Source: Geosiphon pyriformis uo1
Taxonomy: Eukaryota; Fungi; Glomeromycota
Direction: 5' to 3'
NCBI GenBank assembly: GCA_016748015.1
Contig: JAAOMT010000201.1
Location: 256,224-320,223 of the forward strand
DNA: 64,000 bases
The notes beneath the pieces were generated by a model. It did no database searches. It was not told the DNA's origin and saw only the letters and a program-made list of their open reading frames with translations. Within the stretch, counting starts at the first letter, position 1, and every line of letters begins with the position of its first letter. Positions 1-49,473 of the stretch are shown in pieces. A program made the translations under genes and the position numbers.

Positions 1-716
1 TCGTTCACTGCTGTTTCAGAGTGTTCACTTTGATTTTCAGCTAGAAAGTCAAGAAGATTGGAACTAATTTGAAGAGATTCTTGTTGTCTGGTGGGACTTC
101 TGAGTGATGTAAAATCTTCTGGTCTTGTAAATTGATTTAAGGGTGAATTAGGTGTTTGTGCTTATGCAAGTGAAGCTGAAAAAGGTGTGATAGTAAGTGG
201 AAGTTTTGAACTGGTTCCCTGTTCAGGTGTTTGTAAGTGTTTGGCAGTTGTTTTTGGTAATATTGGGATATTTGGGGTGGTTTTTGAGTATTGCTTCAAT
301 TTTTGTTTGCCTTTATTGCTTGTTTCTGTCTCTGATTCAAAATCAAAAGAGTATTTAGACTGTACTGGATATTTTTCTTCACAATATTCAATAATGTTAA
401 AATTAAGTTCTTGGAAGTAGATAGCAAGTGTTTTACTGTTCAGGTTTTCTGTTTCCAATTGTGAATAGTGCACTAAATTATTGTAGAGATTGCTTCTAAC
501 TTTTAAAATGTTGTAGTTTCCAAAAAGATAATTATTGATGCAGTTTTCAATGTATTGGTATACTGATTTCTTGACAACTTCAATTCCGTCTGGAATGTTG
601 AATTTTTGCTTGCAGTGGGTATAAATTGACTGGTAATACTCTAGAGTTGCTGTGTCTGGTGTGGTTGCCACTTTGAATTTGTTGTTGCTGTGTTATTTCC
701 GTGGAAGAGCATCAAA
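1..716 (-). pseudogene. Decayed gag 5' region of Gypsy family C element C1 (continues beyond window start)
   Basis: ORF 162-671 starts GTG-GCA-ACC just after PBS-like TG(A/G)TGCTCTT (705-714); paralogous to 2387-3016 (TLEYYQSIY..CKQ.F.I.DGIE). Confidence 0.75.
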
Positions 717-1697
717 TATTACTGGAGGTTTTTGGTCTCTTCTTAGCTTTTGTATGTTTGTTGTAATGCTGTTAATTCACAACTATGGAAAGTGTTTGAA
801 CCTCTGATAACTGAATTTATCTTCAAATTATAGGAAATAATTTGAACTGCTGGGCTTATAGTGGAATGGCCAATTCTGTGCCAGTTACTTTGTATAGTTA
901 CGTTGTAGTAAACATCAACTCTTTTCCAGGAAATGCTTGTCTGGAAGCTCACTAAAAATGTGTAGTTACTTTGCTGTGAAAGTCAACTCTTCTACAGGAA
1001 TTCTCGTCTGTAGGCTACCCTAATGATTATGATAATAAAAGAAAATAAAAGAAAATAAAAAAAATGTAAAAGAAATAGAATTCTATCAAAGGAAACGTTT
1101 CTATCCAGACCTGAAGTCACTAACAGTTTACTGAAATTGGTAGCTAATTAATTTCAAACTATTTAGTAGGAATTGGTTAATTTCAAAAGGGAAATAATTA
1201 AGGATTTGATTTTTCAAATTATTTGATATTTATTTTGTTTTTGTGTATAAAAGATAATTTTAATTGTTAAATCTAAAGTAAAATACATTTTCTCGAAGAG
1301 AGAAGCTCTTCTTTTATACAACTTGTCATAACACTATTCTATGAACTTGAACTTTGCTCTTTTCTACAATTTTGCTAAACTAAAGATACATTTCAGCGAA
1401 CTACAAGTTATTTCTGTGAACTATTAGATATTTCGGTGAACTATTAATTATTTCAGCAAATTTCTACAAATTTTGGCAAACTTTTGAATGTTACATATTT
1501 CAGGGTATTACATGATTGATCATCACAATTAGATTACATCTGTGTTATGTACAATTGAGTTATTAATTAAATAATAATTTTGGATATTTTGCTAATGTAA
1601 TAAGTGATAATTTGAAACGATAATATATGCTAATTAATAATAAGAATTATAAAGATAATTTCATGCTAAATAATATTTCTAATTTCGTCTGATAACA
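717..1697 (-). repeat. 5' LTR, Gypsy family C (C1)
   Basis: TG..CA-type ends (decayed), adjacent PBS, aligns with 3017-3973 and 58940-59896; inserted in gag of C2. Confidence 0.85.
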
Positions 1698-3016
1698 CTG
1701 GTTTCTCCAATAACTAGGTTGACAAGCTTGGTGTGATTTGCTTCTTCTATTGCCATTTTATAGTTTTTTGCATGTTTAATGGTTGTTACTAAGTCTGCTA
1801 AGGCATGTGGATAAACTTTTTTAATCAATTTGTCTTTTAATTTTGTTATAAATTGATCCAGAATTGGAGCATTGGAATAGTAGTCATTGGTGTCCAATTG
1901 TCAAATTCATCTAAGAAGTTTATTAAATTTTCCAAGATAGATCATAACAGTTTTGGATGTTTCTTGCTTAATATTATGAAAGCAATTCCAGAAAGTGATA
2001 GAGGTATTGTTGTTAGTAAATTGTTGTAAAAAAGCATTTTTAAATACTTGTCAGTTTTCAAAGGGTTCAATTAAGTTTTCAAATCATTCTCCTACTGTTT
2101 CTTGGAGAAAGTATGAAATTGTTTTAAGCATTCTTGCTGCATTCCATCCATTTACATCTCCTGCTTTCTGGACTTTGTTAAGTCATTCTTAAGGGCTGGT
2201 ATTATTATTTTTACCAGTGAATTTGGGAATCTTTGCAATATAAGCAGTTGCCATTTTTTCTTTATTTTCAGAAGTTTTTTCTTGTTCTGACTCAGTTTCT
2301 TTACTTTCCAAGCTTTCTGAATGATGACTTTTGTTTTCTTGTAAGTAATTAAGAAGATTAGTGCTGGTTAATATTGATTCCTGTTGTTAAGTAGAACTTT
2401 TTAGTAAAGTAAAATCTTCTGGTCTTAAAAATTGAATAAGAGGTAAATTTAGTGTCTGTAGTTGAGCAAATGAAATTGGAAATGATGTAACTGAAAGTGG
2501 AAGTTTGGTGCTGGTTCCTTGTTCTGGAGTTTGCAAGTATTTAACAGTTATCTTTGATGTTTTTGAAGTGTTTGGAGTGGTACTTGAGTATTGTTTTAGT
2601 TTTTGTTTGTCTTTATTACTTATTTCTGTTTCTGATTTAAAGTCAATAGAGTATTTAGACTCTACTGGGTATTTTTCTTCACAATACTGGATAATGCTAA
2701 AAATAAGTTCTTTGAAGTAGGTAACAAGTGTTTTACTGTTAAGGTTTTCAATTCCCAATTGTGAATAGTGCACTAAATTATTGTAGAAGTTGCTTCTAAT
2801 TTCTAAAATATTGTAATTTCTAAGAAAATAATTGTTGATGCAGTTTTCAATATACAAGTAAAGTGTTCTTTTAACAATTTCAATTCCATCTGAAATGTCA
2901 AATCTCTGCTTGCAATAGGTGTAAATTGACTGGTAATACTCTAAAGTTATTGTGTTTGTTGTGATTACTACTTTGAAGTTATTTTTGCTGTGTTGTTTCT
3001 GTAGGAAAGCACCAAA
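1698..3016 (-). pseudogene. Decayed gag of Gypsy family C element C2
   Basis: ORFs 2387-3106 and 1679-1897 (ILDQFI..LK..L..KV.P retrotransposon-gag-like); IAKIPKFTG motif near 2215-2240; stops and frameshifts. Confidence 0.8.
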
Positions 3017-3973
3017 TGTTATCAGAGGTTTTTGGTCTTTTTTTTGAATGTTGTTAATTTCTGTTTGTTGTAAATTCACATTTTTTAGAAGCAGTTGAAC
3101 CTCCAATAACTGAATTTATCTTCAAATTATCTTCTATAATTTGAACTCCTGGGCTTATAAGTGGAATGGCCAATTCTATGTCAATTATTTTATGTAATTA
3201 CATTGTAGTAAACATCAACTCTTTTCCAAGAATTGCTCATCTGGAAGCTTACTAAAAATATGTAGTTACTTTGCTGTGAAAGTCAATTCTTCTACAAGAA
3301 TTTTGTCTATAGACTACTTTGATAATTATAATAAGAAAAGAAAAGAAAAATAAAAGAAATAGAATTTTGTTAAGGAAAATGTTTTCTATCCAGCCCTGGA
3401 GTCACTAACAGTTTATTGAAATTGGTAGCTAATCAATTTCAAAACGTTAGTTGTGTTGAGAAAATTTCAAGTGTAATAATTTAAGAATTTGGTTTTTGAA
3501 TATTTTAATTTTTATTTGATTTTATAAAAGATGATTTGTTCTAATTAAGATATTTAAAGTAAGATACTATGGTAAAATATGAGAAGATACATTTTTTTGA
3601 AGAGAAAAGTTCTTCTTTTATACAACTTGTTATAGTACTAGTCTTTGAATTTGCACTTTTTTCTTTGCTCTAATTTCAGCAAACTAAAGCTATATTTCGG
3701 TAAACTACAAGTTATTTCACTGAATTATTGATTATTTTAGCCAATTTTTATTAATTTCGACGAATTTTGATTATGTTAAATGGTTCAGGGTATTGTGTAA
3801 TTTAATCATCTTAATTTTTATGGTACAAATTGGATTATTGGTTAAATGATGATAATTGCTAATTTAATTAAATAATAGATAATAATTGAAATAATAATCA
3901 TATATGCTAATTAATAATAGGAATTATGAAAGTAATTTTATGCTAATTAACAGCTAAAATTCTACTGGTAACA
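3017..3973 (-). repeat. 5' LTR, Gypsy family C (C2)
   Basis: TGTTAC...TAACA ends; PBS TGGTGCT adjacent at 3008-3014; same length (957 bp) as solo copy 58940-59896. Confidence 0.85.
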
Positions 3974-5446: not shown

Positions 5447-6984
5447 GCAAGAGTTCAATTAGAACTAACCATTTTTATCTCTATATTTTGTCCAGAAAAG
5501 AAATTTTATAAAAAAAAATTAAATATACTTCTCAAGCAGGATGTAAAAAAAAAGAGAGGAGAAAGAAAAAGGAGTGAAAAACTTGGATAGAAGACAAAAA
5601 CAATTATATACAATATACTTGGTCTTCAAGCTAGAAAAAATTAAAAAATCTTTAGCTTATGGGACTGAACTCTTCAAAACAGAGGAGTAAACACCAGACA
5701 ACACTCAAGAGTAAAAAAAAAGACTCCTTTCAACATATTGGTTTTACAAAATTGGGAAACAATTAGATTTAAAAAACCCATACAAAGACTACAACCAGAA
5801 AACTTTTAATAAAAAAGCAATATAACAAGTAAAAAAATTCGTAAAAAGAAGCAACCTGACACTATACTACAAAGCAATATGTTAATTATATGTCACTTTC
5901 CAATATTGTCCAAACATACTATTAAAAAAGACAACAGTCAACAACATAGGACAAATGACCAATCAACAGTTCAAAAATCTACAAAAAACTATAGTTAATA
6001 TAACCATTGAACATTACACAAACAAAGTTCTATTAACAGACACAACTGATTTTGCAAAAGCTCAATATTAAAAAAGAAGAAGATAATATTACTTGAAAAA
6101 AAAAAGCTTATTAAAAAAAGAAAGAAAAATGTGACCTAAAAAAAAATATAATAAAATATAAAAGAACACAGAATAATACACAATAATATTAGATAACACG
6201 TTATAACATAGAATAATGTGTTATAATACAGGATAATACAGAATAACATGTTATAATGTAGAATAATGTGTTATAATATAGAATAATTAGTTATAATATA
6301 AAAAAACAAAGTAATAACTAACAAGAACAAATGATCTAAAGCAATCCTGTAAAATTAGAAAATATGTATATATAGCAGTAGCATTAGAAACAGAAAAGAC
6401 AGAATTCCCAGACAAAAATTTATTAGTTACTATTCCCTAGTTAAAAACCATATTATTTTAAATATTAATAAATATATTATTCAGCATTTCAAATCCAATT
6501 GCTTATTATCAACTCTAAATGTTAATAGTAATTGATACTTAAATTACATGAGAACAATAGCTCTTGATTATAGCTATTAATAGGATACTAATTTGCATTG
6601 CCTTGGCTTAATTTTTTTTATTTTATCTTCTTTTATTTTTTTGTATCTTGTTGGTGGTTTACTAAACTTCTTAAAAATTAAGTATTAAGTTATTAATGTC
6701 AAGAATTGTCTGGTAAAAGACTCCTGCAAGTGGATAGAATGTGTAAAAATTAAGGATTGCTTACCAAAGAATTGCTGACCATCAAGCTGAGAAAAAAATT
6801 GATGGAATTGTGATTCCAGAAAGCTACAAATAAAATAACATGGAAATCTCTGTTCATTATACAAAAGATTCAATCAAAACCTTCAAAATGCAAAAATCTT
6901 CAGATTACTACCATTTCATATTAATTAAGCACCAAGTTATGGGTTTGTTATTTACTCTAACTATCCAAATAATCACTTGTAACA
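5447..6984 (+). mobile_element. Gypsy 3' end: ORF3 remnant (5447-6070), PPT (~6070-6086), 3' LTR 6087-6984
   Basis: ORF3 remnant matches 32280-32875; purine tract AAAAAAGAAGAAGATAA precedes LTR; LTR ends TGTAACA at 6984. Confidence 0.8.
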
Positions 6985-8970: not shown

Positions 8971-9791
8971 GATTCGTGGCCAGATTTTAGAATAATTCTC
9001 TTTGGGCTGAATCAGATAATCCTCTAGCTTATGAAATCCATTTTTTATGGAAGAGATAGCAGGTCTTTTTATACGTCCTTCTTTTGCTGATCCAAGGAGC
9101 CGAAGATTGAAATGCGTTTTGGGAAGGCCAACATCAATGAACTTTGAATAAGGATTAGTTCCATAACCTTTTCTGTGAATCCCTTAAGTTCTCTATAATC
9201 TATGAATTGGGCACGAGGATAAATAATATGCCAACTACATTTCTCAGCATTTGATGAACTAGCTAAAGCAAAAGAATTTAAGAAAGGCATACAATCTGGA
9301 ATAAGGCTTAATGCATCCGCACAAGCGACTAAAATTCGAGATAACAAATCTTCTCGTGTAATTTTTTTATCGTTTAAGGAAGGCACTTTAGGATTTGTAG
9401 GATCAGGCTTTTGCCTTGCATCAATATCAATAATCAAACGAAGAGGCTGGTTACCATCAATACATTCGTGAGTATCAGGTATTCTATAAACTTCAGAGGG
9501 ATGATTAACCAATGCAAACTTTTCTTTTATTCGAATTATATACTGAGAATAAATCTCTTCGGGCTGGTATGCATCTAAAAGTGCAGTATCATTTCTATCA
9601 GAAGAGCTGGTATGGCCATTGGATGCAAGCCAGTATTTATAATATGTATGCTCTTTATGGCCAGGTTTATCAAGATCCGTTAAACCCATAAAAAACCTTT
9701 TTGCTTCATTATATTCGGCCGACTTTTGATTTAAGCAGTGTTGTTGTAATGATTCATGAAGACATTTTTTTGCTTCACTAGACAAACTCAT
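8971..9791 (-). pseudogene. Archaeo-eukaryotic primase (PrimPol-like) domain, frameshifted and 3'-truncated
   Basis: Motif I LRLIIDID, motif II KCSWHII; after a frameshift near 9155 the other frame gives motif III PYSKFIDVGLPKTHFNLRLLGSAKEGR; cut off by the inverted-repeat arm at 8970. Confidence 0.8.
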
Positions 9792-9952
9792 TTTATTGAT
9801 TTCTATATATGTGTTGTTTGTATATGCGTGTTTGATCTGACAAAAAGTATGTATTACGTTGATTTATCAACTTATAATAAAAGCGACATAAAAAGTTTAA
9901 TTCGAAAATAATTATTTCATATATGCAAATTTGAAAGTTATTGTTATTAGTA

Positions 9953-10237
9953 ATGGCATTCTATTCTTGCCCACATACTTATATTGATGGGCGAATTTGT
10001 GGAAAAGGTAGTTATCGACAAGAGGGTTGTCCTCTTCATTGGAAAATGCGATTACGTAATCCTTGTAAAGAGTGTGGTATACCAACTGCCTCTATATATT
10101 GTATGTGTGTTAAACATGCTGGAAAATATCGCAACAAATCAAACTATCACAAAAAAAAGCAGGCTGAATTACGTGCAAAAATTGTTATGCTTGAGAATCA
10201 TATACCTGACTTACTCGATTCTAGACATGAAGTATAA
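9953..10237 (+). CDS. Small Cys/His-rich putative zinc-binding protein (94 aa)
   Basis: C-x9-C-x9-C-x2-H and C-x2-C...C-x2-H patterns, basic coiled tail; intronless, ATG at 9953. Confidence 0.65.
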   Translation: MAFYSCPHTYIDGRICGKGSYRQEGCPLHWKMRLRNPCKECGIPTASIYCMCVKHAGKYRNKSNYHKKKQAELRAKIVMLENHIPDLLDSRHEV

Positions 10238-10554
10238 TCATATATTGATTATTTTTTCCAGGACCTCTTATTTTGGAAAATGGCACTTATGTGCCTAAGT
10301 AATGTTATATCCTCTTTGATGCCTTCTATATTTTTGGTAATTTTATTAGGTAAAGCTATAGATTCCACGACTTTTGATTGAATTCGTATCTTGTTCGTGC
10401 CCATTTTCTGACAGAATTATAATAACCGCCACCCATTCAATTTTTTAGGTATTCTGACCCTAGATAATTAATTTCGATTTGAAAAAAGAATCTCCATAGT
10501 ATATATCAGACGAAAATAGTCTATATAAAACATCTCAATTAACATATACTAATC

Positions 10555-11655
10555 ATGGCAAAAATTGCTACATCATTTGTAAATCGCTATCATTTAACTT
10601 CACAAACTAGTTTACCACAGCTTAGTACTTATGTTGAAGAGTTAGCTAGTAAACTCTCAGATGGTAAGACAAAAGAGCAAGCTCGAAAAGCCAGAGATCA
10701 GGCCAAAAGACGCTTCCAACAGTTAGGATTGAGTAAGGAGCAAGCAGATACTCTTATTCCTATTCAAGCTCCTGGGAGACACGTTGAGGAAAGAGATCCT
10801 ATCAAAATTATCGCCCAATATATTATAAAAAATAATCTCTCACCTGAAGAGATAAATGGAATAGCATATGACTTGGCTTCTTCTGCTCCCACTGTTGCGG
10901 GAAATTCTCGTCTTAATTTATTACGGAAAAAGTTGTGTAGCTTAGGAGCTGACTATCTCATTACCGAGGCAACGAAAATACCTTTTATTACTGAAGAAGC
11001 AAATCAGATTCAAGCAAGAAAACGTATACTTCGTGGAATTAATGGTTATGATTGTCCCAAGTTCTTTTACCTGGAAAAAGTTCAGGAAAGACTTAATGAA
11101 TGTGATATTACCAAGCCTCCTTCAATGCAAAATCTAATAGACATAATGGTAATGCTATGTATGCGATCGGCAGATGTGGAAACTCTTCGTATCAATCGAT
11201 ACAGACCAAGTCGTGAGTCATGGTATAATCCTGACTATTCTTTGTATTGCACCGGTTATGCGAAAAATAAAGGTGAAGTAGGAGAACCCCGACCATTCCT
11301 CTCAATGGAAAAAAACCCAATACGAGCAAGAGAATTGCTTATCTGGATTCAGAAATCAATACCAGATAAATTTCCCTTCTTGTTAAAAGATAAGGATAGA
11401 AATACCAATGTTGTACCACTTAATCTATTCTTGAGTCGTCATAGAATTACCTCATATATGTTAAGAAAAATAGGTGCTGATCATGCTTCCAGAGTACATG
11501 GAGGTAAGAATGATTCTGGCCGTCAATATTTACGACAATTGGCATGTAGGCATAAGATAGGTCATGCTTCATCAGTTGAACATTATGGTGTAATGAATGA
11601 TAGGCCAATTATTTCAGTGCCTAAGCAAGAAAATCTCGAAGTCGAGGATAACTAA
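10555..11655 (+). CDS. Tyrosine recombinase, protelomerase/telomere-resolvase-like (366 aa, intact)
   Basis: Putative catalytic set R204 (MLCMRSAD), K237 (TGYAK), R304 (YMLRK), H333/H337, Y344 (SSVEHY); the GxAK and xxHY contexts resemble protelomerase GQAK and QLHY. Confidence 0.7.
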   Translation: MAKIATSFVNRYHLTSQTSLPQLSTYVEELASKLSDGKTKEQARKARDQAKRRFQQLGLSKEQADTLIPIQAPGRHVEERDPIKIIAQYIIKNNLSPEEINGIAYDLASSAPTVAGNSRLNLLRKKLCSLGADYLITEATKIPFITEEANQIQARKRILRGINGYDCPKFFYLEKVQERLNECDITKPPSMQNLIDIMVMLCMRSADVETLRINRYRPSRESWYNPDYSLYCTGYAKNKGEVGEPRPFLSMEKNPIRARELLIWIQKSIPDKFPFLLKDKDRNTNVVPLNLFLSRHRITSYMLRKIGADHASRVHGGKNDSGRQYLRQLACRHKIGHASSVEHYGVMNDRPIISVPKQENLEVEDN

Positions 11656-12062
11656 TCACTCTATCACTTTTATCATATTCACAGTAAAATCTTTATCATC
11701 ATTGGATGATTCAGACTCAGACCCAGATGAAGATGAGGACCAGATGCGGTATCATTTAAAATTTTCTTTTTTCTTTTAGCCTTAGATGGTGTACAATTTC
11801 TTCGAGAAATATCGAGGTTTACTATCGCATTTATAATATCTTGCTGAATCTTGGGTTTTACTATCTCCAGTAATCGGTGAAGAGAGATCCAGATTTTTTT
11901 ACCCGCCACTTGCTTAATAATACTGGATACCACCCTATAATTATTCTGAGATTCGTGGCTATTTCCAATAATTTCCACTCCCAATTTTTTAGCAAATTCT
12001 TCGGTTATAGTTGACCAGTTAGTGCTTGAATCGATAGTAGGTTTAGTTGTTGTTGATGACAT
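11656..12062 (-). CDS. Hypothetical protein, probable frameshift near 11740
   Basis: ATG 12062; basic KAKRKKK stretch; alternative frame ends SSSSGSESESSNDDKDF..* at 11656, tail-to-tail with the recombinase stop. Confidence 0.5.
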
Positions 12063-12203
12063 AATATTATTTATTAATACGAATAAAAATACATTATTAA
12101 ATATAAAATTATAATAAAGCATCACGATGAGAATTTTATCTTGCGAAATTAACAAAGTACCAGTTAAAACTATATTAGATACGTCTGAAATAGCAAATAT
12201 ATA

Positions 12204-12671
12204 ATGAGTTATAGCAGAGTACGAGATAGGTTAAGTGAATATGGTGTAAATTATATTGTTAATAATATTAAAACATCAGAAGCATGGTTACAGTTTGCAA
12301 AATATTATCCACCAAAGTATGTACGCAAGCGTTTATTAAAACTAGGATATGAAATAGATAATAGAGATTATTGGGAAAATTTTGTATTTCGTATCAAAAA
12401 TAATTTAACCAGCCACAAGCAAATAGGTAATGACCCTAAATATAGGGATTTTAAAGTTCAACTAGCATTATATAAAAAAAATTGTGCGTCATTAATTATC
12501 CAGAAGACATATCGTTTATGGAAAAAACAAATTAATTCAGCTAAAATAATCCAACATGCAGTAATTGAATGGCTTTATAGACCTGGTGGATCATTTATGA
12601 AGCAAGCCAAAGATCGATATTATCAAAATTCGAATAAGCTCCATCATAATAGCATTGGGAGTAAACAATAA
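12204..12671 (+). CDS. Hypothetical protein with two IQ-like motifs
   Basis: ASLIIQKTYRLWK and SAKIIQHAVIEW followed by LYRPGG; intronless 155 aa. Confidence 0.65.
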   Translation: MSYSRVRDRLSEYGVNYIVNNIKTSEAWLQFAKYYPPKYVRKRLLKLGYEIDNRDYWENFVFRIKNNLTSHKQIGNDPKYRDFKVQLALYKKNCASLIIQKTYRLWKKQINSAKIIQHAVIEWLYRPGGSFMKQAKDRYYQNSNKLHHNSIGSKQ

Positions 12672-12887
12672 CGAAATATACCTTAAGGAACACTTCCTCT
12701 ATGGATTGTTTCGTGATAATCAGTTAAAAGCCAGAAGATGTGGAACAGACCTGTCATTAGATGAGCTGGTTGCAAAGTTAAGCGTGATTGAGAATATCAG
12801 AAAAATAAATGATATATGCGTCTAAATTAATTATCCGAACATTAGCTGTTTTTTTCGATTAAAGATATATAATATACATTTTTGAGA

Positions 12888-13700
12888 ATGGCGCAACTAT
12901 TGCGGAGCAATGACCCAAAGGGTCTAAATATTTTTGATTTACCAGAATTGCTAGAACAGATCTTATATTATTTAAAAATTGATCGATCCCTCTATCCCAC
13001 TTTGTTTGTCAACCACTTTTGGTATCACTGCGGTGCTCCTATTCTATGGCATCGCGTTGAGTTTATTAACAAAGATTATCAGCAGAGTCGACGTCCCTTA
13101 AATTTGTCTCGGGTTCTTACTCGACGATTGATAAACTTTGAAAAAATTATATGTAGAAAAATAAAGCCACTCTATTGTTCAAAGATGGTATATCTCAGAT
13201 TAGAAGGTTTAAAAATCTCAGATGCATTGATCAGTGCAATTTTGCATTTATGTCCGAATATATGCTTTCTCATTCTTGATAAAATTGCGAGATTTTCTCT
13301 GAAACTACAGCATCTGAGTCTTAATTCATGTATATGTCTCACTAATCGTTGCATCACTGAAATTGTTCGCTCATGCCTAAAACTTAGACATCTTGAGCTT
13401 GGTGATTGTTTGATTAGTAATAAAGCTGTCGAAGAAATAGCCCACAACTGTACTAATTTGAAATATCTTAGTTTGGAGGGATGTAAAGGGATTAACAAAG
13501 AAGTAATAAAAAAATTCAATCCAAAAATTAAAATCGAATATCCTGATTATTCAGATGATTTACATACTCTATTTCCCACTGGCATAATAATTGGAACGAA
13601 TTTTATTCCTGCATTTAGAAATTATATAGAGATTAGCAGAATTAATCCTAATCATTCATCGTGGATCACAAATAATTTTATTTATAATATACATCATTAA
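12888..13700 (+). CDS. F-box / cysteine-containing LRR protein
   Basis: F-box-like LPELLEQILYYL..LFVNHFW..GAPILW; LRRs LQHLSLNSC, LRHLELGDC, LKYLSLEGC. Confidence 0.85.
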   Translation: MAQLLRSNDPKGLNIFDLPELLEQILYYLKIDRSLYPTLFVNHFWYHCGAPILWHRVEFINKDYQQSRRPLNLSRVLTRRLINFEKIICRKIKPLYCSKMVYLRLEGLKISDALISAILHLCPNICFLILDKIARFSLKLQHLSLNSCICLTNRCITEIVRSCLKLRHLELGDCLISNKAVEEIAHNCTNLKYLSLEGCKGINKEVIKKFNPKIKIEYPDYSDDLHTLFPTGIIIGTNFIPAFRNYIEISRINPNHSSWITNNFIYNIHH

Positions 13701-13789
13701 ATAATATTACAGGATGCATATTATTTTGACTATAGAAGAATAGAGGAGGTAATCAGGTATTCGACAGCCTCCAGCTAATTTTAAAGAAT

Positions 13790-14464
13790 TTATTTGCTGT
13801 GATGTATATATATCTGTGATAATTTTCCTTGTTTTACTTTTGATTCTAGACATGGGCACTGATTGTTGCTAGTAGATTTTTTGACGAAAATTTCATGCAA
13901 TTGTTGAAGAGTGACATTCGGAAACAATGGTAGTCCCTCACCAGTAAACCAAAATTTCTTTACCCCTCTATCAACGAATTTTTTTATTAGCATACCTGGA
14001 TCATCTTCTAAGGGACCGTGGAATTTCTCAAACTTTCGGAGGTACACCCTTGCATGTTTATTGGCTTCTTCTGCCATTTCTTGATTAGTATAGCCAACAA
14101 TACCGATTTTTTCCTGAATTGTCGCTATATCGTCTTCTAAGCATAAAAGCAAATCAAATAATCTAATTGGTTTATCTGAAGAGACTTTATCCCTTCTAAG
14201 TTCTGCTTCTAAAACGGGATTGATATCTATACCAAGTTTCCCCTGTATAGGTATTAAATCCCCCACCAATTCTAACAACAATTCATATGAATCAGCATGT
14301 TTTTTCGCTTTCTTGCTTTCCGACACTGCCGTTTGATTTATATTACTGTTAATAACAAGTTTTTTCTGAATAGCTGTTATATCCTTTTTCTTATATAAAA
14401 ACACTTCGTATAATTGAAGAAAATTTTCACTTGGATCAGTTTTATTATTAGTATTACTCGTCAT
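13790..14464 (-). CDS. Hypothetical protein (224 aa)
   Basis: Open ATG-initiated intronless ORF with repeated DI(T/A)xIQxKL/IG helical motif. Confidence 0.6.
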   Translation of the reverse strand: MTSNTNNKTDPSENFLQLYEVFLYKKKDITAIQKKLVINSNINQTAVSESKKAKKHADSYELLLELVGDLIPIQGKLGIDINPVLEAELRRDKVSSDKPIRLFDLLLCLEDDIATIQEKIGIVGYTNQEMAEEANKHARVYLRKFEKFHGPLEDDPGMLIKKFVDRGVKKFWFTGEGLPLFPNVTLQQLHEIFVKKSTSNNQCPCLESKVKQGKLSQIYIHHSK

Positions 14465-14804
14465 GATTGTTATAATATGGTAATATAATTAATGCGGAAA
14501 ATAACGCATAAATATAAAAATTAAGTGAATATAGCAAATTCAATCTGAAAATAATTATAACCACATCGTAACTGCGAAATTACATCACGTTATAATGAGC
14601 CTCAGGGGAGCGATGTCATGTGTTTTAAATCCGCGAATCAGAGATCAGCATAGAAGTTCATGGAACATGCCAATAAAAAGCCCCTAATGGGTCATAATCT
14701 CATATATTTACACGAAAATCTTTATTTAACAAGTGATTATCTGATATATTTACATTTTAAAACCGCTAACTCTATATAATTATTTTTGCTATATAAGTAT
14801 CGAA

Positions 14805-15478
14805 TTATATCCCATAGGGTAGTGGATCCTCTGCTTTCAACCCACGTCTGGCACGCGATAAATCTGTAAAGAGTAACGATTATAAATAGCGATTTTTTAG
14901 CAATACATATAATACAATGAAAAGATTAACACGAACGTACTAGCCCATGTGAAATAATTACTTACCAATATTTCCTCGTCTTTTATCGCAAGATCTTTCT
15001 GGTATCTTGGTTTGACTTTTTTTCGGTTGGGAGAGTGTAATTCGGTTATTCAGATCTCGTACATCATTGAGATCTTGCCGAGGAATCGAAGAAAAAACAA
15101 ATCCACGTGAATCCCTCTCAATGCCGGCCTCTAGATCTTCGTATATCGACGAAAAATCGCGCAGATGATGGAAGAAGGTACTGTGAACAAAGTAAACAAT
15201 ACTGTGCCGGATCCCTCGAGTTATGGGAAAATTTCCATGAAGGAGAAGACGTGAGGAGAAAGCAACGATTTGTCGGGGCGAAGCGGAACGACAATCTGGA
15301 GTTGGGGGAACCATAATTCGCCTCCCTCGAAATCACCCAATGCGACTGAACAACAAAGAGAATTTGGCTCGTCATGTTCATCCCAATGAAAGTCACTTAT
15401 TGTATTGAAGTTAATCGCGATCATAGGGAAGACTCCGAATGACCTTGGCGCAAATGCTCCCCATTCTAGCTTTAGCAA
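14805..15478 (-). pseudogene. TET/JBP-like 2OG-Fe(II) dioxygenase, 5'-truncated and frameshifted
   Basis: HxD (FHWD), GDFEGGELWFPQL, then after a frameshift near 15274 H (LLHGN) and RxS (RHS); GT-AG intron 14965-14864 restores the last exon DLSRARRGLKAEDPLPYGI*. Confidence 0.7.
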
Positions 15479-15481
15479 TTT

Positions 15482-16984
15482 TTAAAATGGAGATGAAACA
15501 GTAGGACTCGGGTGTATATTTCGGGGTGGATGAGTATTAGCTTGTTCTAATGCCTGTATTAGTAAGCTATTATTAACGATCATGACGTTTCTTAAGGTCA
15601 ATAGTAAGCGAACGAGAGCTTTAGTATTCGATGCGTGTGGTGATAATGGAATTTCAGCGTTATCAAGATGGAAATATCTTGGTATACCACCCAGATCCTT
15701 CATAAGAACATTTAATCGCATAGTAGTGCCAGCTATTTGTATTCCAACAATCCCAAATTGATTGCCAACCGGTCTACACAGCGCATCCACAAAGCTCACT
15801 CCATCTAAAGTCTCTCTCCACAATTTCACATCATCATCCGTTTTCTTTGAATTACTACATAAAATACGTGAAGATTCAACATATAATAATTCTAAAAATT
15901 TGTCACCCCATTTCAACAGTCCCATAATGTCAGGTTTCTTTCCCATTCGTTCTCTGACTGCTCCTGCATTTCGTTGAGCCTTACTTGCTAGGCTCTGTCG
16001 TTCTGCTGTACTTAAACAGATACTACCATTATGTAGGTCCCCTAAACTCGATCGGAGCAAAGGCAGTATAATATCCGAAATATATGTTCCTTCACTTTGC
16101 TCACTACGTGATATACTCATGAATACTGGGTTACTCCATGTTTCACCACTAATGAAAAGTAAATTAGAAATATTAAAAAAATTTGCACTTCATAGACTGT
16201 ATAGCACTCTAATACTAACTGCTGAAGAATCAAAATAATACTTACAGTACACCAAGAATTCGTTCACTAGTTTCCACCAACTTATGTTCGCTTTCTTTCC
16301 ATTTTTTGTTATGAAAAATATTTCTCGTGGCTTGTGAAGTATTCGAGTTATTAAACCTACCCACAAATTCATCACACATCCTTGTAACCGATTCAGGGAT
16401 ATCGCATTTCATATTCTCCCGCGGTTCCAAAAAAACTTTCTTTTGCCTGCGCCCCAAATTTTTTATTAGGCCCGAATCGTCGGTAAGAATCATATTCGCT
16501 TTGGGATCTTGCCACGTAAGTTCTGACGGATTTATATGTTCGAGAGCTTGCCTAAGCGCTCCGTAAAGATTCGCATCAATTTCTGATCCGGGATGCTTAA
16601 TATACAAGTTCATTAACTTTCGGACAAAAGAATACCTCACTTTGATAAAATATCTGAGACATACCTCGAGCTTGTATTTTAACATTTTAATATTCGCCAC
16701 AATCTCTTCATGGCTATAATCAGGGGGTAACTCCCTCTCTATATTCAACGCTTTGAATGCTTTCAGACCTTTAATGCTGATATAACCACTTGAAATCTAT
16801 GGCAAATGCAATAATAAATTAGTACCGGTACAAGCCAACCTCACATTATATCTGTTTATATACTACGCCCGCACATGTGCGTTTTCAGAATTTAAAAATA
16901 TCACTGTTTTGGCAGATAGTCACGCACAGTCAAGGAGGAGCAAACTCTCGACATCCAGAGGATATCGCTCTTCCGAGCTGGCAT
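15482..16984 (-). CDS. Spliced gene (~400 aa) with C-terminal PD-(D/E)xK restriction-endonuclease-like domain
   Basis: Predicted exons 16984-16928, 16796-16665, 16595-16246, 16148-15482 join in frame with GTGCGT/GTATGT/GTAAGT donors and AG acceptors; motif KKPD..ELLYVESS..DDVKLWR. Confidence 0.65.
16642..16975 (-). repeat. Right arm of ~334-bp inverted repeat (partner 8637-8970)
   Basis: Direct reverse-complement match. Confidence 0.95.
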
Positions 16985-17013: not shown

Positions 17014-18178
17014 ATGAGATTTATATTTTTTTATAGTATATTTTACTAATTTTCTATTAAAACCTTTTCTATAAAGATTCATATAACACCAATATTTTCT
17101 TGAAAATTGTCTAATAGTTATTAAAAATACTAATTTAAGACTTTTAAACACTGTTCTTTGTAATTTTTTTCATAAATAATTTTATTTATTATATGTATAT
17201 CTTTTAGTAACTCCCTAATATCTTTTAATAAAATTTAATTTACAATAAAATTTTGAAAAAAAATGTATTTATGTCTTATACTTTCAATTAATTTTTTAAT
17301 TGTATTTTTTTGAGTAAAAAAATCAGATTCCAAAGATATTACTTAACATACATAACAAAAAACTTTTGAAAAATTTTTGATTTTTTTTTTGCATTTTTAG
17401 CATTGTTACAGATGATTATTTGGGTAGTTAGAGTAAATAACAAAGCCATAACTTGGTGCTTAATTAATATGAAATAATAATAATCTGAAAGTTTTTGCAT
17501 TTTGAAGATTTTAATTAAGTTCTTTGTATAATGGACAGAGATTTCCATGTTATTTTATCTGTAGCTTTCTGAAATTACAATTCCATCAATTTTTTTTTCA
17601 GCTTGGTGGCCAGCAATTCTCTGATAAGCAATTCTTAATTTTTACACATTCTATCACTTGCAGGAGTCTTTTATCAGGCAATCCTTGATATTAATAACTC
17701 AGCACTTAATTTTTAAGAAATTTAGTAAACCACCAACAAGATACAAAAAAATAAAAAAAGATAAAATAAAGAAAATTAAGCCAAGACAATACAAATTAAT
17801 ATTCTATTAATTGTTATAATTAAAAGCTATTGTTCTCATGTGGTTTAAGTATTAATTACTATCAACATTTAAAGTTAATAGTGAGCAATTGGATTTGAGA
17901 TGCTAAATAATATATTTATTAATATTTGAAATAATATGATTTCTAACTAGAGAATAGTAATTAATAAATTTTTGTCTAAGAATTCTGTCTTTTTTGCTTC
18001 TAATGCTATTGCTATATATATATATTTTCTAGTTTTACAAAATTGCTTTGAATTGTCTGTTCTTGCTAATTATTGCTTTGTTTTCTTACATTATAACTAA
18101 TTATTCTATATTATAATACATTATCCTATATTATAATATATTATTCTATATTATTCTGCATTATAATACATTATTCTA

Positions 18179-21426: not shown

Positions 21427-24400
21427 TGTTACAGGTGATTATTTGGGGTCTCAAATCAAATAACAAACTTGTAACCTGGTGCTCAAAAGCTATTTCTGAT
21501 AATGGTGATCTGAAGGATTGTTTGTTTGAAGGTTTTGGTTGTTGAGTTCTTTGTATAATAGACAAAAATTCAATAGTAGTTTATCTGTAGCTTTCCAGAA
21601 TCACAGTTCTGTCAATTTTTCTCTCGACATGGTGGCCGGCAATTCTTAATGTTAATAACTTAGTGCTTAATCTTCAATCAATTAGTAAAACAAAAAAGTA
21701 ACAACAATAAAAGAAAATAAAACAAAGAATAACAGAAAATAAAAAATAAGAAATCAGCCAAGGCAATGAATGTTAGTAATTCATCAATAGCCATGATTAA
21801 GAGCTATTGTTTCAGTGTGATTAAGTATTAATTACTATCACCATGAAGTGTTAATAGTGGAGAGTGGATTGAAATGGTGATTAATTATTTATTAATATTG
21901 TGAATGAAATGTTTTTAACTAAAGAATTCTTTCTTTTTTACTTCTAACATTATTGCTATATATACATAATTAATGTTCTACGAAATTGCTCACATTCTTG
22001 AGCAATGTGCTATGATTTCTTGAACAATGTGCCCTAATTTTCTAATATTGCTCCACATTGCTGAGTAATGTATTGTGTTTTCTGACATTGCTCTATATTG
22101 CTGAGCAATGTGTCGTGATTTCCGTTATTGCTCTATATTGCTAAGCAATGTGCTTACATGTTAAATGCTATTTGCTTATTGGTTTACTATTTTCCTATAT
22201 CTGTTTTCTTTTTATGAGTAACATTATCTTCTCCTTTTTAATATTAAGCTTTGTTGAAATCTTCATTTTGAATTAGCTCTAATACTTTTTTTTCTAGTAT
22301 TGTTTATTTAACTTTATTTTTCACATCTTCTTCTTGTACATTGTTTATTCTTCCCCATTGGTTAATAGTTATAGTTTCCATGTCAGAGTATAACAGTATT
22401 TCTAGATAGTTTTGAAATATGTTGTGCAGTTGGTAAATTGTTCTCACATATAGTGTTGAGTTTGTTTTTTTTCCAATAAATTCTTCAATTTGCTGTATTA
22501 TGTTTTGGTTAAATATTCTCTTAAATTTGTCAATATACAACTCCTGAATATTCAACTTTCAACCTAACTAATAGTAATAATATGATATTGAAAGTTGTTC
22601 TGTCTATTGCTTCCAATTCTTTTTTGTAAGTTCTTTTGTTGGTGCCATAATAGATATTTTTCTAAAAGTGTTCTTTACTTTTTCTATTATGTTATTTGAC
22701 CAGTTTTTATATTTCTTTGGTAACCACTGATATAATGTATTCTTTGTCTTTCTTTTGGTGTTTCGATAGCAAATTGTTTGATTATTAATAATAATTTCCA
22801 TGTCTAATGATTGCTGACTTAATGTCTGGAATAATTGTTGAGCTATGGTGTAAATGTGATCTGGTATTTCCATTTTTTTTTCTTGGTTGCTTTTGTCATG
22901 TATACTGTGTCTTTATATATTCTTTTATTATTCAATTTTACATGTTTGGTTTAATGATTATGATTGGTTCCAGATCTTGTGGAATCTTATCTGATTGGAC
23001 TAGTATTTGTTGTACTCCCAATTGTAGAATATTATTGGTGGATGATGATGCTATTTGGTAATATGGTTTCAGTTGATTATCATGTGCTGCTTTGGCTAAA
23101 ATTTTGTTGTCCCATCTTAATTTATAAGCTCTATTTCCAAGAATTTCTTCTATGTGAAATGGACCATCCTATTTGGGGTCAAATTTTCCACTCCATTGTT
23201 TTTCTATTTTGGTATGATGTAAAAGTACTTTGTTTCAATCTTGAATTCAACTGGTTTATCTGGTAATTGGTTATTGTGTCATTCTTTTTGCTTTTTTTGA
23301 GACTTTTGGATATTATCAGCTGTTTTTCGTCATTTGTTTTCTAGTGTTTCCATTAAGTCATATGTTCTTCTTAACAATGTTTCTTGGAAATTGGCTTCTG
23401 TTATTGGTTCAGTTAGATATGTATTGACCTCTATCTCAATTGGTAATGTTGCTGTTTTTTTATATACTAATTCAAATGGTGTTGCTTGTGTAGTATCTTG
23501 TCTTATTGTCCGATAAGCAAATAATACTGATGGTATAAACAAATCTCATTCATCTTGGTTTTCTTGACTGATTTTGGCAATTGCTTCACATAATGTTTTA
23601 TTGAATCTTTTAACTAGTCTATTGGTTTGTGAATGATATGATGATAATAATGGTCTTTTTATCTCAAATCTTTGACTTAGTTCTGTCAATGTTTTATTTA
23701 TAAAATGAGTTTTTTGATCTGATAGTAGTTTCTTTGGACATCCATGTTAACAGATCAAATCTTGATAGATGATGTTATCTGAGTAGAAAAACCAATCCAA
23801 AGTTATAAAGAAACATAACATAACACAGAATAGTGTAATAATGTTGGATAATGTGTTATAATGTAGGATAACATGTTATAATACAGGATAACACAGAATA
23901 GCACACAATAACGTAGAATAACATGTTATAACACAGGATAACACAGAATAATATGTAATAATGTCAGATAACATGTTATAACATAGGATAACTAGTGATA
24001 ACGTAGAAAAACAAAGCAATAACAGAAATAACAAAGCAATAGCTAGTGATAGTGAGACAATTGAAAGCAATCCTGTAAAACCAAAAAAATGTATAAAAAA
24101 CAAGTAGTTATAGAAGTTAGAAAAGACAGACAGATAGATAGATATAAACCTTTAGACAAAAATTAAATATCCATACCCCTTCATCATTTATTATCCTCCC
24201 TATTTTATCTTCTGAAATAAACGAATTATTAAAGAAATCAGAGTCACAAATTCATGTTCTTGAACTTCATGGAATTTATGTGAATTAACTCTTGTCTCGT
24301 ATTTTCATTCTAGGACAGATGCTCTTAGCATAACCATCTCGAATGATCAATGATTTGGACCAATCGCTCTTGATCATAGCGATTGACAATACTAATTTAT

Positions 24401-35800: not shown

Positions 35801-37359
35801 CCAAATTCGTTTTTGCTGGCAAAAATGTCATTGAATTTGTTGAGTAACATTTTTAGTTGCATCTGCTGAAGTGAGTCTAGATTCCCTATATTCATCTGTT
35901 CCAATTGTTCTGGTTGGAGCAGATAACATTCACTTTGTCCATAGATGGTTTGTGATGTGATGTCTACATATTCACAAAGCTGTGGAAAATCTGGAATATG
36001 GTTTGGTAGTTGATCTTCAACTTCAGTGGTTAAATATCCAATGATGGTTTTCTTTGGTATTTCAATGACATTTTCCATTGTATTATAAATGGGAATTTTG
36101 ATGTTTTTTGGGCTTTTGGCTGATATGTAAAAATTAGTGAGTCCAATCTCTCCTGATTCACAGATGGTGGCTTCTGCTTCAAACAGCTAAGCTTGATCTT
36201 TCACTTCTCTTTTTATGGCTAATATATACTGGTCATATGGTGAAATAGAAATTGATTGACAGGTTGAGATAATTTCTTCTTTGTCAATAACCTCTTCTTT
36301 TACCATATTAATTGGTATATCTATTCTATCTGTTGATCTGAATCCTTGTATCTCTCTAGCAGTAATCCTTAATTCTTCCCTGTTTCCCATTGACATTAAG
36401 TTAGCTATTTTCACCAGAGGTAGAAATATTGCCTGTGCTATCTTTTCATTTGGCTCTATCATGTAGGCCTTTTCTGAGTTATTTTGTAGCATGGCAATAA
36501 TATTTCCTACATATCCTGCATCAATTATTTCTTCTTTGATGTTGATTCTCTTTTTGGATAAACTACTTCTAGATGTTAACTGAACTATTGTTGTTGCTGG
36601 AATTTTCAATGCTATTTTGAGATCAATGCAGGTGTGTGAATGAAGTTCTAATTTTATGGTATCTTTTCCTGAATATCTTAAATCAAATTCTGCATCAATA
36701 TCATGCACACGTTTTAGCATGATACCTTCATTGTTATCACTGAATTATTTCAGTTTCTGCTCTTTGGTAAAGTCAGAAAGTGCAATAAATGTTTCGGGGT
36801 TTGAATTAGAGTCCGAATTGTTGTTATTTCTATTGGCATTTTGAGCAGAGCTAGAACTGTTATTTTTATTGTCATCATTGTTGGAGTTTGAATCGGGATT
36901 GAAACTTGATCCCGATTGTGATATGCAGCTGTTTATTGGTTTGTCCTCTTCTGGAATTGTGTAGATTATGCATGGTAGTGAATTGTAAATGAGGTCACAC
37001 TCATTACAATATTGGAAGTTACAGAGAATCAAACAGTGGTCATATAGTTGAGTGTTGATTTCTTCCAAGCATTGCTTCTGCTCTTTTCTTGTAAGTGTTA
37101 GCTCTTGATAGTGTTTGTGGAATTGTTCTGGATCCAACAGATTTATGACTAGTTCTGGGTTTCAGTTAAGTTCTATGGGTTCAAGTGAGTTATATTTAAT
37201 TGTTTTTATTTTTTCTGGTGATGCTTCTTCAATTTTAGTGAGTGCCATTTGCCAAATTTTGTCATCATCATGTGGACATCCATCCAAACATTTGACTGCT
37301 CATTTCCAGGTGGCATCTATGGGTGTTTTCTTTTTCACCCAGTCGCTTATGAAAATCAT

Positions 37360-40300
37360 TGTTATAGATGATTATTTAAGATCTTAAATCAAATAACAAA
37401 TCTGTAACTTGGTGCTCAATATCTTAACAATGCTGGTGATACTAGTACATTGGTTATATCTAAAAGTTTTAGAGTTGAGTCCTTTGTATAATAGACAGAG
37501 ATTTAAATGATGGCTTTATCCATAGCTTCCCAAAACTGCAGTTTTATCAAATTTCTTTCTTAGCATGGTGGCTGGTAATCTTTCTGGTAAGCTATCCTCA
37601 AATTTATAAGTGTTCTATCTTTGTTTCACAGGTCTTTTACCAGTCCCTATGATGTCTGTATCTCAGCACTTAATCTTTAATAAATTTTAGTAAAACCCAA
37701 GAAATAACAAAAAAAAATAAAAAAAAATAAAAAAAAATAAAAAATTTTAACAAAAAGCAATTGCAAGTTAATATCCTGTTAATAGCCATGATCAAGAGCT
37801 ATTGTTCCAGTATAATTAGGTATCAAGTACTATCAACATGAAGTGTTAATAGTGGAGAGTGTATTAAAATGGCAAATAATTATTTATTGATATTTATGAA
37901 TAGAAGATTGCTTAGATCAAAACTAAACTGAGAGGTCTGTTCTTTTTTCTTCTAATGCTATTGCTATATATACATAATTTGGGTTCTACAAGATCACTCA
38001 CATTCTCGAACAATGTGCTATAATTTTTCAAGCAATGCTCACATTGTTGAGCAATGTGCTGTATTTTTTTGACATTGCTTTATATTGCTAAGCAATGTGC
38101 CATGATTTCTGACATTGTTCCACATTGCTGAGCAATATGCCATGATTTCTAATATTACTCTACATTGCTGAGCAATGTGCTCGCATGTTACTACTACTCA
38201 CTTATTAGTCGACTATTTTTTTATATATTTGTTTTCTTTTTATAAGTAACATTATCTCTTCTTTTTTAATATTGAGCTCTGTTGAAATCTTTGTTTTGAA
38301 TTAGTTCTAATACTTCTTTTTCAAGTATTGTTTGTTCAACTCTGTTTCTCACATCTTCTACTTGTGTATTGTTTATTTTTCTCCATTGGTTAATGGTAAT
38401 GACTTTCATGTCCGAGTGTAACAGTATTTCTAAATAGTTCCAAAATATGTTGTATAGTCAATACATTGTTTTAATATGTAATGTTGAATTTGTTTTCTTT
38501 CTGATAAATTCTTCAATTTGTTGTATTATGTCTTGGTTAAATATTTTTTTAGATTTGTCGATATACAACTCCTAAATATTCAACTTCTGACCTAACTGGT
38601 AGTAACAGTATAATATTGGAAGTTGTTCTGTTTATTGTTTCTAATTCTCTTTAGTGAGTTTTTCTGTTGGTGTCATCATAGGTATTGTCCCAAAAGTGTT
38701 CTTTACTTTTTCTATTATCTTCTCTGACCAGTTTTTATCATTCTTTGATAACCATTAATATGGTATGTTCTTTGTCTTTCTTTTGGTTTTTTGATAGCAA
38801 ATTGTTTGGTTGTTAATGATAATTTCCATGTTTAACTGTTGTTGACTTAAGGCCTGGAACAGTTGTTGAGCTATAGTGTGAATATGATCTGGTATTTCTA
38901 TTTTCTTGGTTGCTTTTGTTGCGTGTATTGTGCCTTTATATACTCTTTTGGGTTGTTTGATTTGACGTGTTTGGTTCGATAATTATGATTGGTTTCAGAT
39001 CTCATGGAATCTCATCTGGTTGAACTAGTATTCTTTGTACTCCTAGTTGTAGAATGTTATTAGTGAATGATGATGCTATCTGGTGATATTGTTTTAGTCG
39101 ATCACCATGTGCTGCTTTGGCTAAGATTTTGTTGTCTCATCTTAATTTATAAGCTCCATTTCCAAGAATTTCTTCTATGTGAAATGGTCTATCTCATTTG
39201 GGGTCAAATTTTCCACTCCATTGTTTTTCCACTTTAGTACAATGTAGAAGTACTTTGTCTCCAATCTTGAATTTAACTGGTTTGTCTGATAGTTGGTTAT
39301 CATGTCTCTTTTTTTGTTTTTCTTGTGACTTTTAAATGTTATCAGCTGCTCTTTGTCACTTGTTTTCTAGAGTTTCCATCAAGTCATATGTTCTTCTTAG
39401 CAATGTTTCTTGAAAATTGTCTTCAGTTATTGGTTCTGTTGGATATGACTTGACTTCTATCTCAACTGGTAATATTGCTGTTCTACTGTAGACTAATTCA
39501 AATAGTGTTGCTTGTGTAGTGTTTTGTTTCATTGTTTAATAAGCAAATAATACTGATGGTATAATCAAGTCTTATTTGTCCTGGTTTTTTTGGCTGATTT
39601 TGGCAATGGCTTCACACAATGTTCTGTTAAACCTTTCTACTAATCCATTTGTTTGTGGATGATATGGTGATGATAATGGTCTTTTGATTCCAAATCTTTG
39701 ACTTAATTCTGTCAATGTTCTGTTTACAAAGTGGATTCCTTGATCTGATAGTAGTTATTTTGGACATCTATGTTGACAGATCAAATCTTGATGAATGAAT
39801 TTGGTAACGGATTCTGCGTCTGCTCTTTGAATTGTTTTTGCTTCTGGCCATTTAGTAAGATAGTCCATGGCTATTGCAATATATCTGTTGCCTCTGCTAG
39901 TGATTGTTAGTGGTCTGACTAAGTCAATTCCAATGTGATTAAATAGTTGTCCCACTTTAATTGGTCTTAATGGTTCACTGGGTTTTGTTCCTTCTCTTCT
40001 TTGACAAACATTACAATTTTGAACATATTAGATAATGTTTGAATACATTAATGACCAATAGTATCTTTTTCTAATTCTTTTCATGATTGCTTCTTTATAA
40101 AAATGTTCTGTTGTTGGATCTGAGTGCATATTGAATAATATTGTCTCTTTTTCTGGTTCTGTGATTACTCTGGTTGGTTGATCTGGATTTTTTCTGTTCT
40201 TCTGGTAAAGTATATTTTGATGATTGATAAAATATTTTGATTGTTGTTTTATGTTCCTTTGTTCTTTTCGAGATAATTTTTCCTGAAACAAATGGGTATT

Positions 40301-49411: not shown

Positions 49412-49473
49412 CTTTTGTTGTATTTTCCATTGGTATTGTTCTGGTTTTATTATATTTTTGGTTTGAAATGTTC

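Follow-up and report, generated by a model that had tools for sequence, protein, structure and literature searches.

Results

Family C LTRs and the tandem double-hairpin units

The window analysed here, a stretch of 64,000 nucleotides from Geosiphon pyriformis, is AT-rich and crowded with nested LTR retrotransposons; a striking LTR expansion is described for the Geosiphonaceae (PMC11952901). It contains three copies (C1, C2 and C3; henceforth family C) of one ~960-bp Ty3/gypsy LTR, with identities of 86% between C2 and C3 and 74% between C1 and C3 (Table 1). C1 is the 5' LTR of a Ty3/gypsy element sitting inside the gag of copy C2, and in both C1 and C2 the LTR end is followed by a primer-binding-site-like stretch and gag. 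Family C displays TG...CA-type ends, a target-site duplication and a primer-binding site followed by gag, as Ty3/gypsy elements do, and its gag homologues carry PF03732/PF19259. The gag open reading frame behind the motif-bearing LTR has 125 homologues, and 119 of the 120 listed are hypothetical proteins of G. pyriformis. The copies of family C in the window are truncated, and the pol order reverse transcriptase-RNase H-integrase was found in a sister element (48494-55554), the open reading frames of which contain Retrotrans_gag, Ty3_capsid, dUTPase, reverse transcriptase, RNase H and integrase domains (Pfam). An ARAGORN search for tRNAs found none.

Elsewhere in the window, a dUTPase lies upstream of reverse transcriptase in gypsy elements on the minus strand (49570-52035 by Pfam match, 42131-42619 and 36187-36744 by sequence likeness). 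A cluster of non-gypsy open reading frames without Pfam matches (9069-16796) lies between inverted repeats (8637-8970/16642-16975, 99%) and is also flanked by an inverted LTR pair (6209-7171/17217-18178); it is possibly another mobile element.

Table 1. Positions of the family C features and of the putative start sites in sister LTRs (window coordinates).
Feature	Position	Strand	Detail or basis
LTR copy C1	717-1697	-	981 bp, TG...TA ends, then primer-binding site and gag frame
LTR copy C2	3017-3974	-	then primer-binding site and gag frame
Solo LTR copy C3	58940-59896	+	4-bp target-site duplication (ACAT)
TATA box (TATAAAA)	1312-1318	-	in 3 of 3 LTR copies; also 3616-3622 (-), 59288-59294 (+)
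U-rich tract ending in TAG	1020-1085	-	just before unit 1; sequence
Unit 1 of C1	961-1013 (read 1013-961)	-	alignment, RNAalifold
Unit 1 of C1, hairpin 1	1013-992	-	6 bp, 10-nt loop; then AAG linker
Unit 1 of C1, hairpin 2	988-964	-	4 bp, bulged G, 5 bp, 6-nt loop; then ACA
Unit 2 of C1	893-946	-	hairpin 1 946-924, linker, hairpin 2 920-896, tail
Partial third repeat	883-891	-	identical to hairpin 2 3' arm of unit 1
Units of C2	unit 1 3312-3261; unit 2 3246-3193	-	C>T and G>A decayed
Units of C3	unit 1 59599-59650; unit 2 59666-59719	+	alignment
Near-cognate codon site	877-879	-	ACA in C1, ATA in C2, AAG in C3; 16 nt after unit 2
Hairpin downstream of the motif	822-846 (-); 3122-3146 (-); 59767-59791 (+)		10-bp arms, 5-nt loop
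53-codon frame	719-879	-	near-cognate codon to TAA in LTR end; gag frame is -1 to it
Primer-binding-site-like stretch	701-716	-	abuts LTR end; sequence
gag frame, N-terminal region without conserved Met	14-776	-	opens after conserved TGA inside LTR
Sister-LTR sites, ~45 nt before LTR ends	LTR ends at 55751, 46451, 56732, 37359, 21426, 17400, 4642 (-); 6990 (+)		putative ACG start

Read in the sense direction, each LTR copy consists of a repeat-rich 5' part, TATAAAA, AATAAA (~110 nt 3' of TATAAAA), a U tract with TAG, two hairpin units, more hairpins and the LTR end. Transcription would start ~30 nt downstream of the TATA box, and the U tract could be either a poly(A) downstream element or a polypyrimidine tract with acceptor. 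The hairpin motif lies ~300 nt 3' of the TATA box and ends ~175 nt 5' of the LTR end, in what we infer to be the U5 part of the LTR. U5 is present once in genomic RNA, at the 5' end, and from its predicted U5 position the motif would thus occur once per genomic RNA, within the 5' leader.

A sequence-only reading of this DNA had described a tandem pair of double-hairpin units at 892-1015 and further copies at ~3190-3315 and 59597-59720. Both observations are borne out, since all six units exist as described across C1, C2 and C3 and the further copies are those of the C2 and C3 LTRs. The motif strand is the sense strand of the element, that is minus for 892-1015 and 3190-3315 and plus for 59597-59720, and the unit period in C1 is 67 nt. 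The six units align over 66 columns, and RNAalifold returns the structure described earlier, with 15 pairs, three of them with double changes. As many as 95.6% of 90 cells are paired in the six units, compared to 33-52% for slid controls, a fraction that is inflated because C>T decay converts G-C into G-U pairs. The strict Watson-Crick geometry has one occurrence in the window, both strands considered, and the geometry with G-U permitted has 37, of which five fall on motif units. The units share the start of loop 1 (ACGAG), the A/G linker and the bulged G, whereas the stems and loop 2 differ. Of the constant features noted earlier, a 3-nt linker and a 3-nt tail are uninformative at ~76% likeness of the units. 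One contig of sequencing run X1 joins 59652 to 59614, so that the second unit seems to bear the hairpin 1 arms of unit 1, which hints at another subfamily or a repeated duplication.

Paired changes between the units

Between unit 1 and unit 2, each taken in its inferred state, 7 of 30 stem positions and 6 of 24 unpaired positions differ and all 15 pairs are intact, so that no uncompensated stem change stands against the altered unpaired positions. The stem changes are C-G/U-A, A-U/C-G, U-A/G-C and U-A/U-G: three are double changes, two of these being transversion pairs, and the fourth is a U-G wobble. The exact neutral chance that seven substitutions keep 15 pairs and give at least three double changes is 8e-5 to 8e-4, and that of keeping all pairs alone is 2e-4 to 1e-2, where the range reflects the transition bias assumed and the test is somewhat generous because the structure is taken as given. 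The covariation score was above that of the shuffles (2/500), and the count of double-change pairs was not (288/500).

The wobble G (column 29) is the majority base whichever reference is used (89% of depth on C3, 75% on C1), and at the wobble pair (columns 9/29) T>C is absent among the 10 changes listed. In its majority state, unit 2 keeps 15 of 15 pairs when read as sense strand and 14 of 15 when read as antisense, and the U-G pairing on the sense strand only favours, as one point, RNA over DNA. It is very unlikely that the pairing acts in DNA instead, as minus-strand strong-stop DNA or as a palindromic protein site: U5 is indeed copied to single-stranded DNA early in reverse transcription, and unit 1 of C1 folds as well on the antisense strand (-12.7 versus -10.4 kcal/mol on the sense strand, RNA parameters), but this reading has against it the pair missing from antisense unit 2, and a protein site in duplex DNA would preserve sequence and not pairing.

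The limits of this evidence lie in its origin. Each of the three double changes lies between unit 1 and unit 2, and there are none among copies of one unit; the covariation was thus overstated earlier because all three events stem from one duplication. What stands of the covariation claim are the three double changes between units, and what falls is its extension to many independent copies. The recent copies of family C are unable to provide covariation across many copies, since their variation is C>T and G>A decay, and the C/T alternatives noted earlier are decay of CpG type. Copies of one unit depart from its inferred state almost entirely by C>T or G>A, and decay is as frequent in stems (15/69 C/G sites) as in loops (10/63). 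Among the places listed for 4950 contigs of run X1 aligned on C3, 44 vary by at least 3%, of which 42 are transitions; both transversions lie at 59734, outside the motif, and none at or above 3% was found inside it. Similarly, no stem transversion was found in the 40 of 55 rows listed for 7468 contigs on C1. An apparent A-C mismatch at columns 41/52 was rejected as reference bias, since it was reversed on change of reference.

Folding strength adds little. The 138-nt unit pair has a folding z of +0.36, the sense strand of each of the six units folds at a z of -1.1 to -1.2 and the antisense strand at values from -1.1 to +1.3, and folding of the whole leader of decayed copies gives a mean pairing probability of at most 0.4 for 11 of 12 helices. 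The stability of the motif fold is weak and not exceptional.

We also considered whether the paired changes could have arisen without selection. In the hairpin downstream of the motif, the 5-nt loop of C1 (822-846) stands inverted, as the reverse complement of that found in C3 and most aligned contigs. Template switching yields both loop inversions and compensatory changes, according to PMC8794818. The inverted loop therefore indicates that a mutational route to paired changes operates in this LTR, and template switching is a live alternative cause of them. The motif would then be a neutral by-product, a 67-bp duplication of a stretch holding two chance inverted repeats, the arms of which came to match again when the template was switched in replication or reverse transcription. 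Consistent with this are the adjacent loop inversion, which is a template-switch signature (PMC8794818), the folding z of only about -1 and the equal decay of stems and loops. However, post-insertion decay is predicted by every model, copying from a template gives exact complements and not a majority U-G, and no uncompensated stem change separates the units though their unpaired positions have diverged. Template switching leaves the wobble and the absence of uncompensated changes unexplained. We regard the neutral account as unlikely and selection on sense-strand pairing, of any kind, as likely. The claim of a selected structured RNA element is accordingly retained in part, with the 15 kept pairs and the sense-only U-G in its favour and its dependence on one duplication against it.

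Searches for relatives and known RNA classes

Rfam gave no match at gathering score in the window and none to the motif at E up to 10, so that the comparison with Rfam proposed earlier returned no family; at E up to 10 there were two weak matches in the C1 LTR and five in the C3 LTR, all off the hairpin units. A covariance-model search of the window found 17 matches besides the six units, all at E 0.16 or worse. Pattern scans returned 40 viral, 10 metagenome and four prokaryote loci with a model E never better than 0.12, which we took as chance, and a gag-based locus search found no relative in metagenome (592 candidates) or viral contigs (601). Overall, no relative beyond G. pyriformis was found in the Rfam, viral, metagenome and prokaryote collections. 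A literature search, in which subscription papers were thinly covered, found nothing on Geosiphon LTR leader structure or on ACG-started gag.

Three known RNA classes were compared with the motif and rejected. Box H/ACA RNAs have two long hairpins with pseudouridylation pockets, a single-stranded H box hinge and an ACA tail; the motif hairpins span 22-25 nt and have no pockets, the hinge measures 3 nt and the ACA alone matches. ENE triple-helix elements have a U-rich internal loop between helices, and the sole interruption in the motif is one bulged G, with no U-rich internal loop. Hairpin 2 resembles an iron-responsive element in its lower stem, single 5' bulge, five pairs and 6-nt loop; iron-responsive elements have a bulged C and a loop consensus, whereas the motif has a bulged G, loops without that consensus and no Rfam match, which rules out this identity.

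The suggestion of a ribozyme found no support, there being no Rfam match and no catalytic core. A self-cleaving ribozyme of a new type is highly improbable: a three-way junction closed by 4 bp is one way to draw unit 1, and a pseudoknot between loop 1 and linker is feasible in five of six units, but the three-way closure is broken in unit 2, the hammerhead core is absent, Rfam is empty on the motif at the permissive threshold above, and cleavage in U5 would leave the genomic RNA without its cap and R region.

Sister LTRs have, at a similar place, a hairpin, a purine linker, UUGA and a second hairpin (56898-56965, 37525-37592, 21590-21655 and 17555-17620 on the minus strand, 6766-6831 on the plus strand). 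In this pair 90% of 70 cells are paired and four pairs show double changes, all transitions. The motif model fails to recognise it (E 4.6), so that the similarity, as judged by comparing the sequences, would be one of layout, with homology unsupported by the model.

A role in RNA processing would have hairpin 2 hide a 5' splice site and so keep genomic RNA unspliced, or would have the motif shield the poly(A) signals of the 5' LTR. The 3' arm of hairpin 2 contains GTAACT, which occurs three times in tandem; the gene models P0003, P0060, P0098 and P0112 translate the motif up to GTAACT and resume downstream, and the U tract with TAG lies shortly before unit 1. Those models are, however, predictions on decayed repeats, no sense-strand intron-like joint and no DNA copy lacking an intron was found among the joints listed (four on C3, six on C1), and hairpin 1 is left unexplained, which makes this role quite unlikely. 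Separately, an intron-like stretch with GT, a U tract, a branch-point-like CTAA and AG in order lies inside R/U5 at 56040-56260 (-) and in the matching parts of sister LTRs, and just before it is a hairpin with ATG in its loop in five of seven copies.

The gag start codon and translation

The family C gag frame has ~250 codons ahead of the capsid Met, and in the C2 gag frame the earliest Met common to homologues is at 2254. Among 120 homologue proteins of family C no conserved Met was found in the first 264 of 320 columns (the top column, a Val column, has 19/97), and among 114 of 120 family A homologues, those trimmable to the region, none was found in the first 367 of 383 columns. Whole-protein profile comparison matched the capsid only, and the trimmed N-terminal domains of the two families matched each other (hhalign 83.8%, E 8e-6, score 36.6 versus at most 22.8 in 30 shuffles). 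Since these domains are homologous as proteins, the region is likely to be translated, and in two families ~250-370 N-terminal residues of Gag would likely be made though without a conserved Met. The domain belongs to no known family (14-776, 2255-3075 and 54703-55800 on the minus strand) and is poor in ATG whatever the frame, and the ESM Atlas gave no usable match for it.

No ATG is common to the three family C leaders or to the two family C gag N-termini. C1 and C2 together have 9 ATGs versus 25.9 expected, which is 0.35 of the dinucleotide expectation (P 1e-4), and a family A N-terminus (A55) has 4 versus 11.8 (0.34), compared to ~1.0 of expectation in capsid and pol. The depletion is not significant in two of the five N-termini counted (A45, 0.83; D4, 0.53), and the antisense control is also below expectation (0.66-0.69). 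A stretch free of AUG up to the first conserved AUG is thus present, and weaker in these two of five.

At the near-cognate codon site downstream of unit 2, the third base is G in 61% of depth (contigs on C1), and the ancestral codon was presumably ACG, flanked by a G at -3 and another at +4. The site is visible in 19 predicted proteins, 17 of which begin there with Met and two of which read Thr, the pattern that decay of ACG to ATG or ACA would leave. The 53-codon frame that follows is open in five predicted proteins from two subfamilies, and C1 has a private 1-nt deletion in it at 859. In eight sister LTRs a conserved codon site in frame with gag, 16 codons before the primer site and in strong context, reads ACA in three, ATG in four and ATA in one. 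A search using the frame through unit 2 found just two proteins among 15 candidates, and the ACG codons of loop 1 were rejected as gag starts, since they open only short frames of differing phase. The chances that gag initiates at an ACG inside the LTR appear to us evenly balanced.

The 53-codon and gag frames overlap by 58 nt (719-776, -), and a conserved C-AAA-AAC heptamer lies shortly before the LTR end; by its sequence it is a possible candidate for a -1 shift site.

These observations raise a different function for the motif, namely that its hairpins slow or position scanning ribosomes to start at the ACG 16 nt downstream. We consider this rather unlikely, and its proposed outcome doubtful in the same degree: an N-terminally extended Gag, reached in family C by moving to the -1 frame, or by a short splice, where the LTR ends, with leaky scanning to the capsid AUG. 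The scarcity of ATG, the lack of a shared ATG or of a conserved Met in homologous N-termini, the ACG decay pattern at eight sister sites and the open 53-codon frame all agree with translational control, and a precedent is RTBV with its AUU start and 900 AUG-free nt (PMC5902531). On the other side, the ACG frame of family C stops where the LTR ends and differs from the gag frame, C3 has AAG at the site, and the sister families have the ACG site without the motif (model E 0.16 or worse). The antisense strand is depleted as well and A45 and D4 are not significant, a spliced AUG exon could account for the absent Met, and closeness is the sole link between motif and codon. The broader scheme, in which these gypsy elements of Glomeromycotina start Gag at an ACG inside the LTR and keep a kilobase free of AUG that lets scanning arrive at the capsid AUG as well, with the motif setting the start in family C and a -1 shift at the LTR end, is for us similarly doubtful.

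Discussion

The motif is probably a selected leader RNA module, hitherto undescribed but of a general type that is already known. Our preferred explanation, to which we give a probability of about 0.4, is that it is a candidate packaging or dimerisation module bound by Gag/nucleocapsid. The tandemly duplicated two-hairpin unit in the predicted 5' leader would be a repeated site for the Gag/nucleocapsid of the element itself, its two copies providing two binding sites, and binding there would help genomic RNA to pair up and be packaged. The stems would form in sense RNA and would have been selected for as long as the master element remained active, the genomic copies now undergoing neutral decay, and the recognised part may be the unpaired purines, namely the ACGAG with which loop 1 begins, the A/G linker and the bulged G. 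Variable stems with a constant loop 1 start, linker and bulge fit a scaffold on which a protein would meet unpaired purines. The protein that usually binds the leaders of retroelements is Gag/nucleocapsid, the knuckles of which bind unpaired G, and a sister element encodes a CX2CX4HX4C knuckle (ORF 44668-45264). The observed basis of this reading is the duplication, the position between TATA box and primer-binding site and the paired changes between units. Against it are that there are three double changes only, from a single duplication, that the stems are weak and that the ACG 16 nt downstream hints at translation. A 6-nt loop palindrome (duplex -4.0 kcal/mol), which also counts against packaging in being confined to C1, is found in the 10-nt loop of C1 unit 1 only and is absent from C2 and C3; other loop-loop pairs are at -2.3 kcal/mol or weaker, and a CG is retained in both loops.

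Structured leaders are expected in LTR retroelements, and a selected hairpin pair is unsurprising in itself. The motif lies outside all Rfam families and would represent a small module for RNA recognition by gypsy elements, a subject little studied beyond yeast Ty1. It also illustrates two traps for covariation analysis in fungal repeats, namely that C>T decay fakes G-U pairs and that template switching can make paired changes. Of greater consequence than the hairpin pair would be that a conserved N-terminal domain of Gag lacks its start codon: if ACG initiation is true, a strategy known from pararetroviruses and MLV glyco-Gag would be present in a fungal retrotransposon, and automatic gene models of these elements would begin at decayed codons.

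With regard to known systems, a close fungal parallel is the 5' terminus of Ty1 RNA, which contains dimerisation and packaging hairpins (PMC5454406). Like the TIPIRT domain of Ty1, which serves translation, packaging and priming (PMC5454406), the motif would be part of a structured 5' end in the RNA of a fungal LTR retrotransposon. In contrast, Ty1 belongs to the copia elements and combines a long-range pseudoknot with 7-nt kissing loops that are complementary (PMC5454406), whereas the motif is a short, local, duplicated unit without conserved 7-nt loop complementarity.

Gammaretroviruses have a pair of leader stem-loops that pair via CG (PMC3265304). The motif is reminiscent of the GACG pair of MLV in having two look-alike adjacent leader stem-loops with G-A-C-G atop the stem and an exposed CG (PMC3265304 and PMC516450). 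By the same accounts it differs in that its G closes the stem under a loop of 9-11 nt, which is not a GACG tetraloop, in that each unit adds a second, bulged hairpin, and in that the MLV pair sits between the primer-binding site and gag whereas the motif precedes the primer-binding site, ending ~175 nt upstream. Membership of the gammaretroviral GACG pair was rejected on loop form and position, and the motif would at most act in a manner similar to the Ty1 and MLV hairpins.

For the translational reading, the closest systems are RTBV/CaMV and MLV glyco-Gag, the latter with a CUG start (PMC3265304). Shared with these, as described in PMC5902531 and PMC3265304, are a long structured leader, a near-cognate codon just past the structure, a long AUG-poor stretch and, here as a proposal, an N-terminally extended Gag. 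Unlike RTBV/CaMV as described there, family C is without a large stable stem-loop or a conserved short uORF; its codon would be ACG, compared to AUU in RTBV and CUG in MLV, and its ACG frame would require a -1 change to enter gag.
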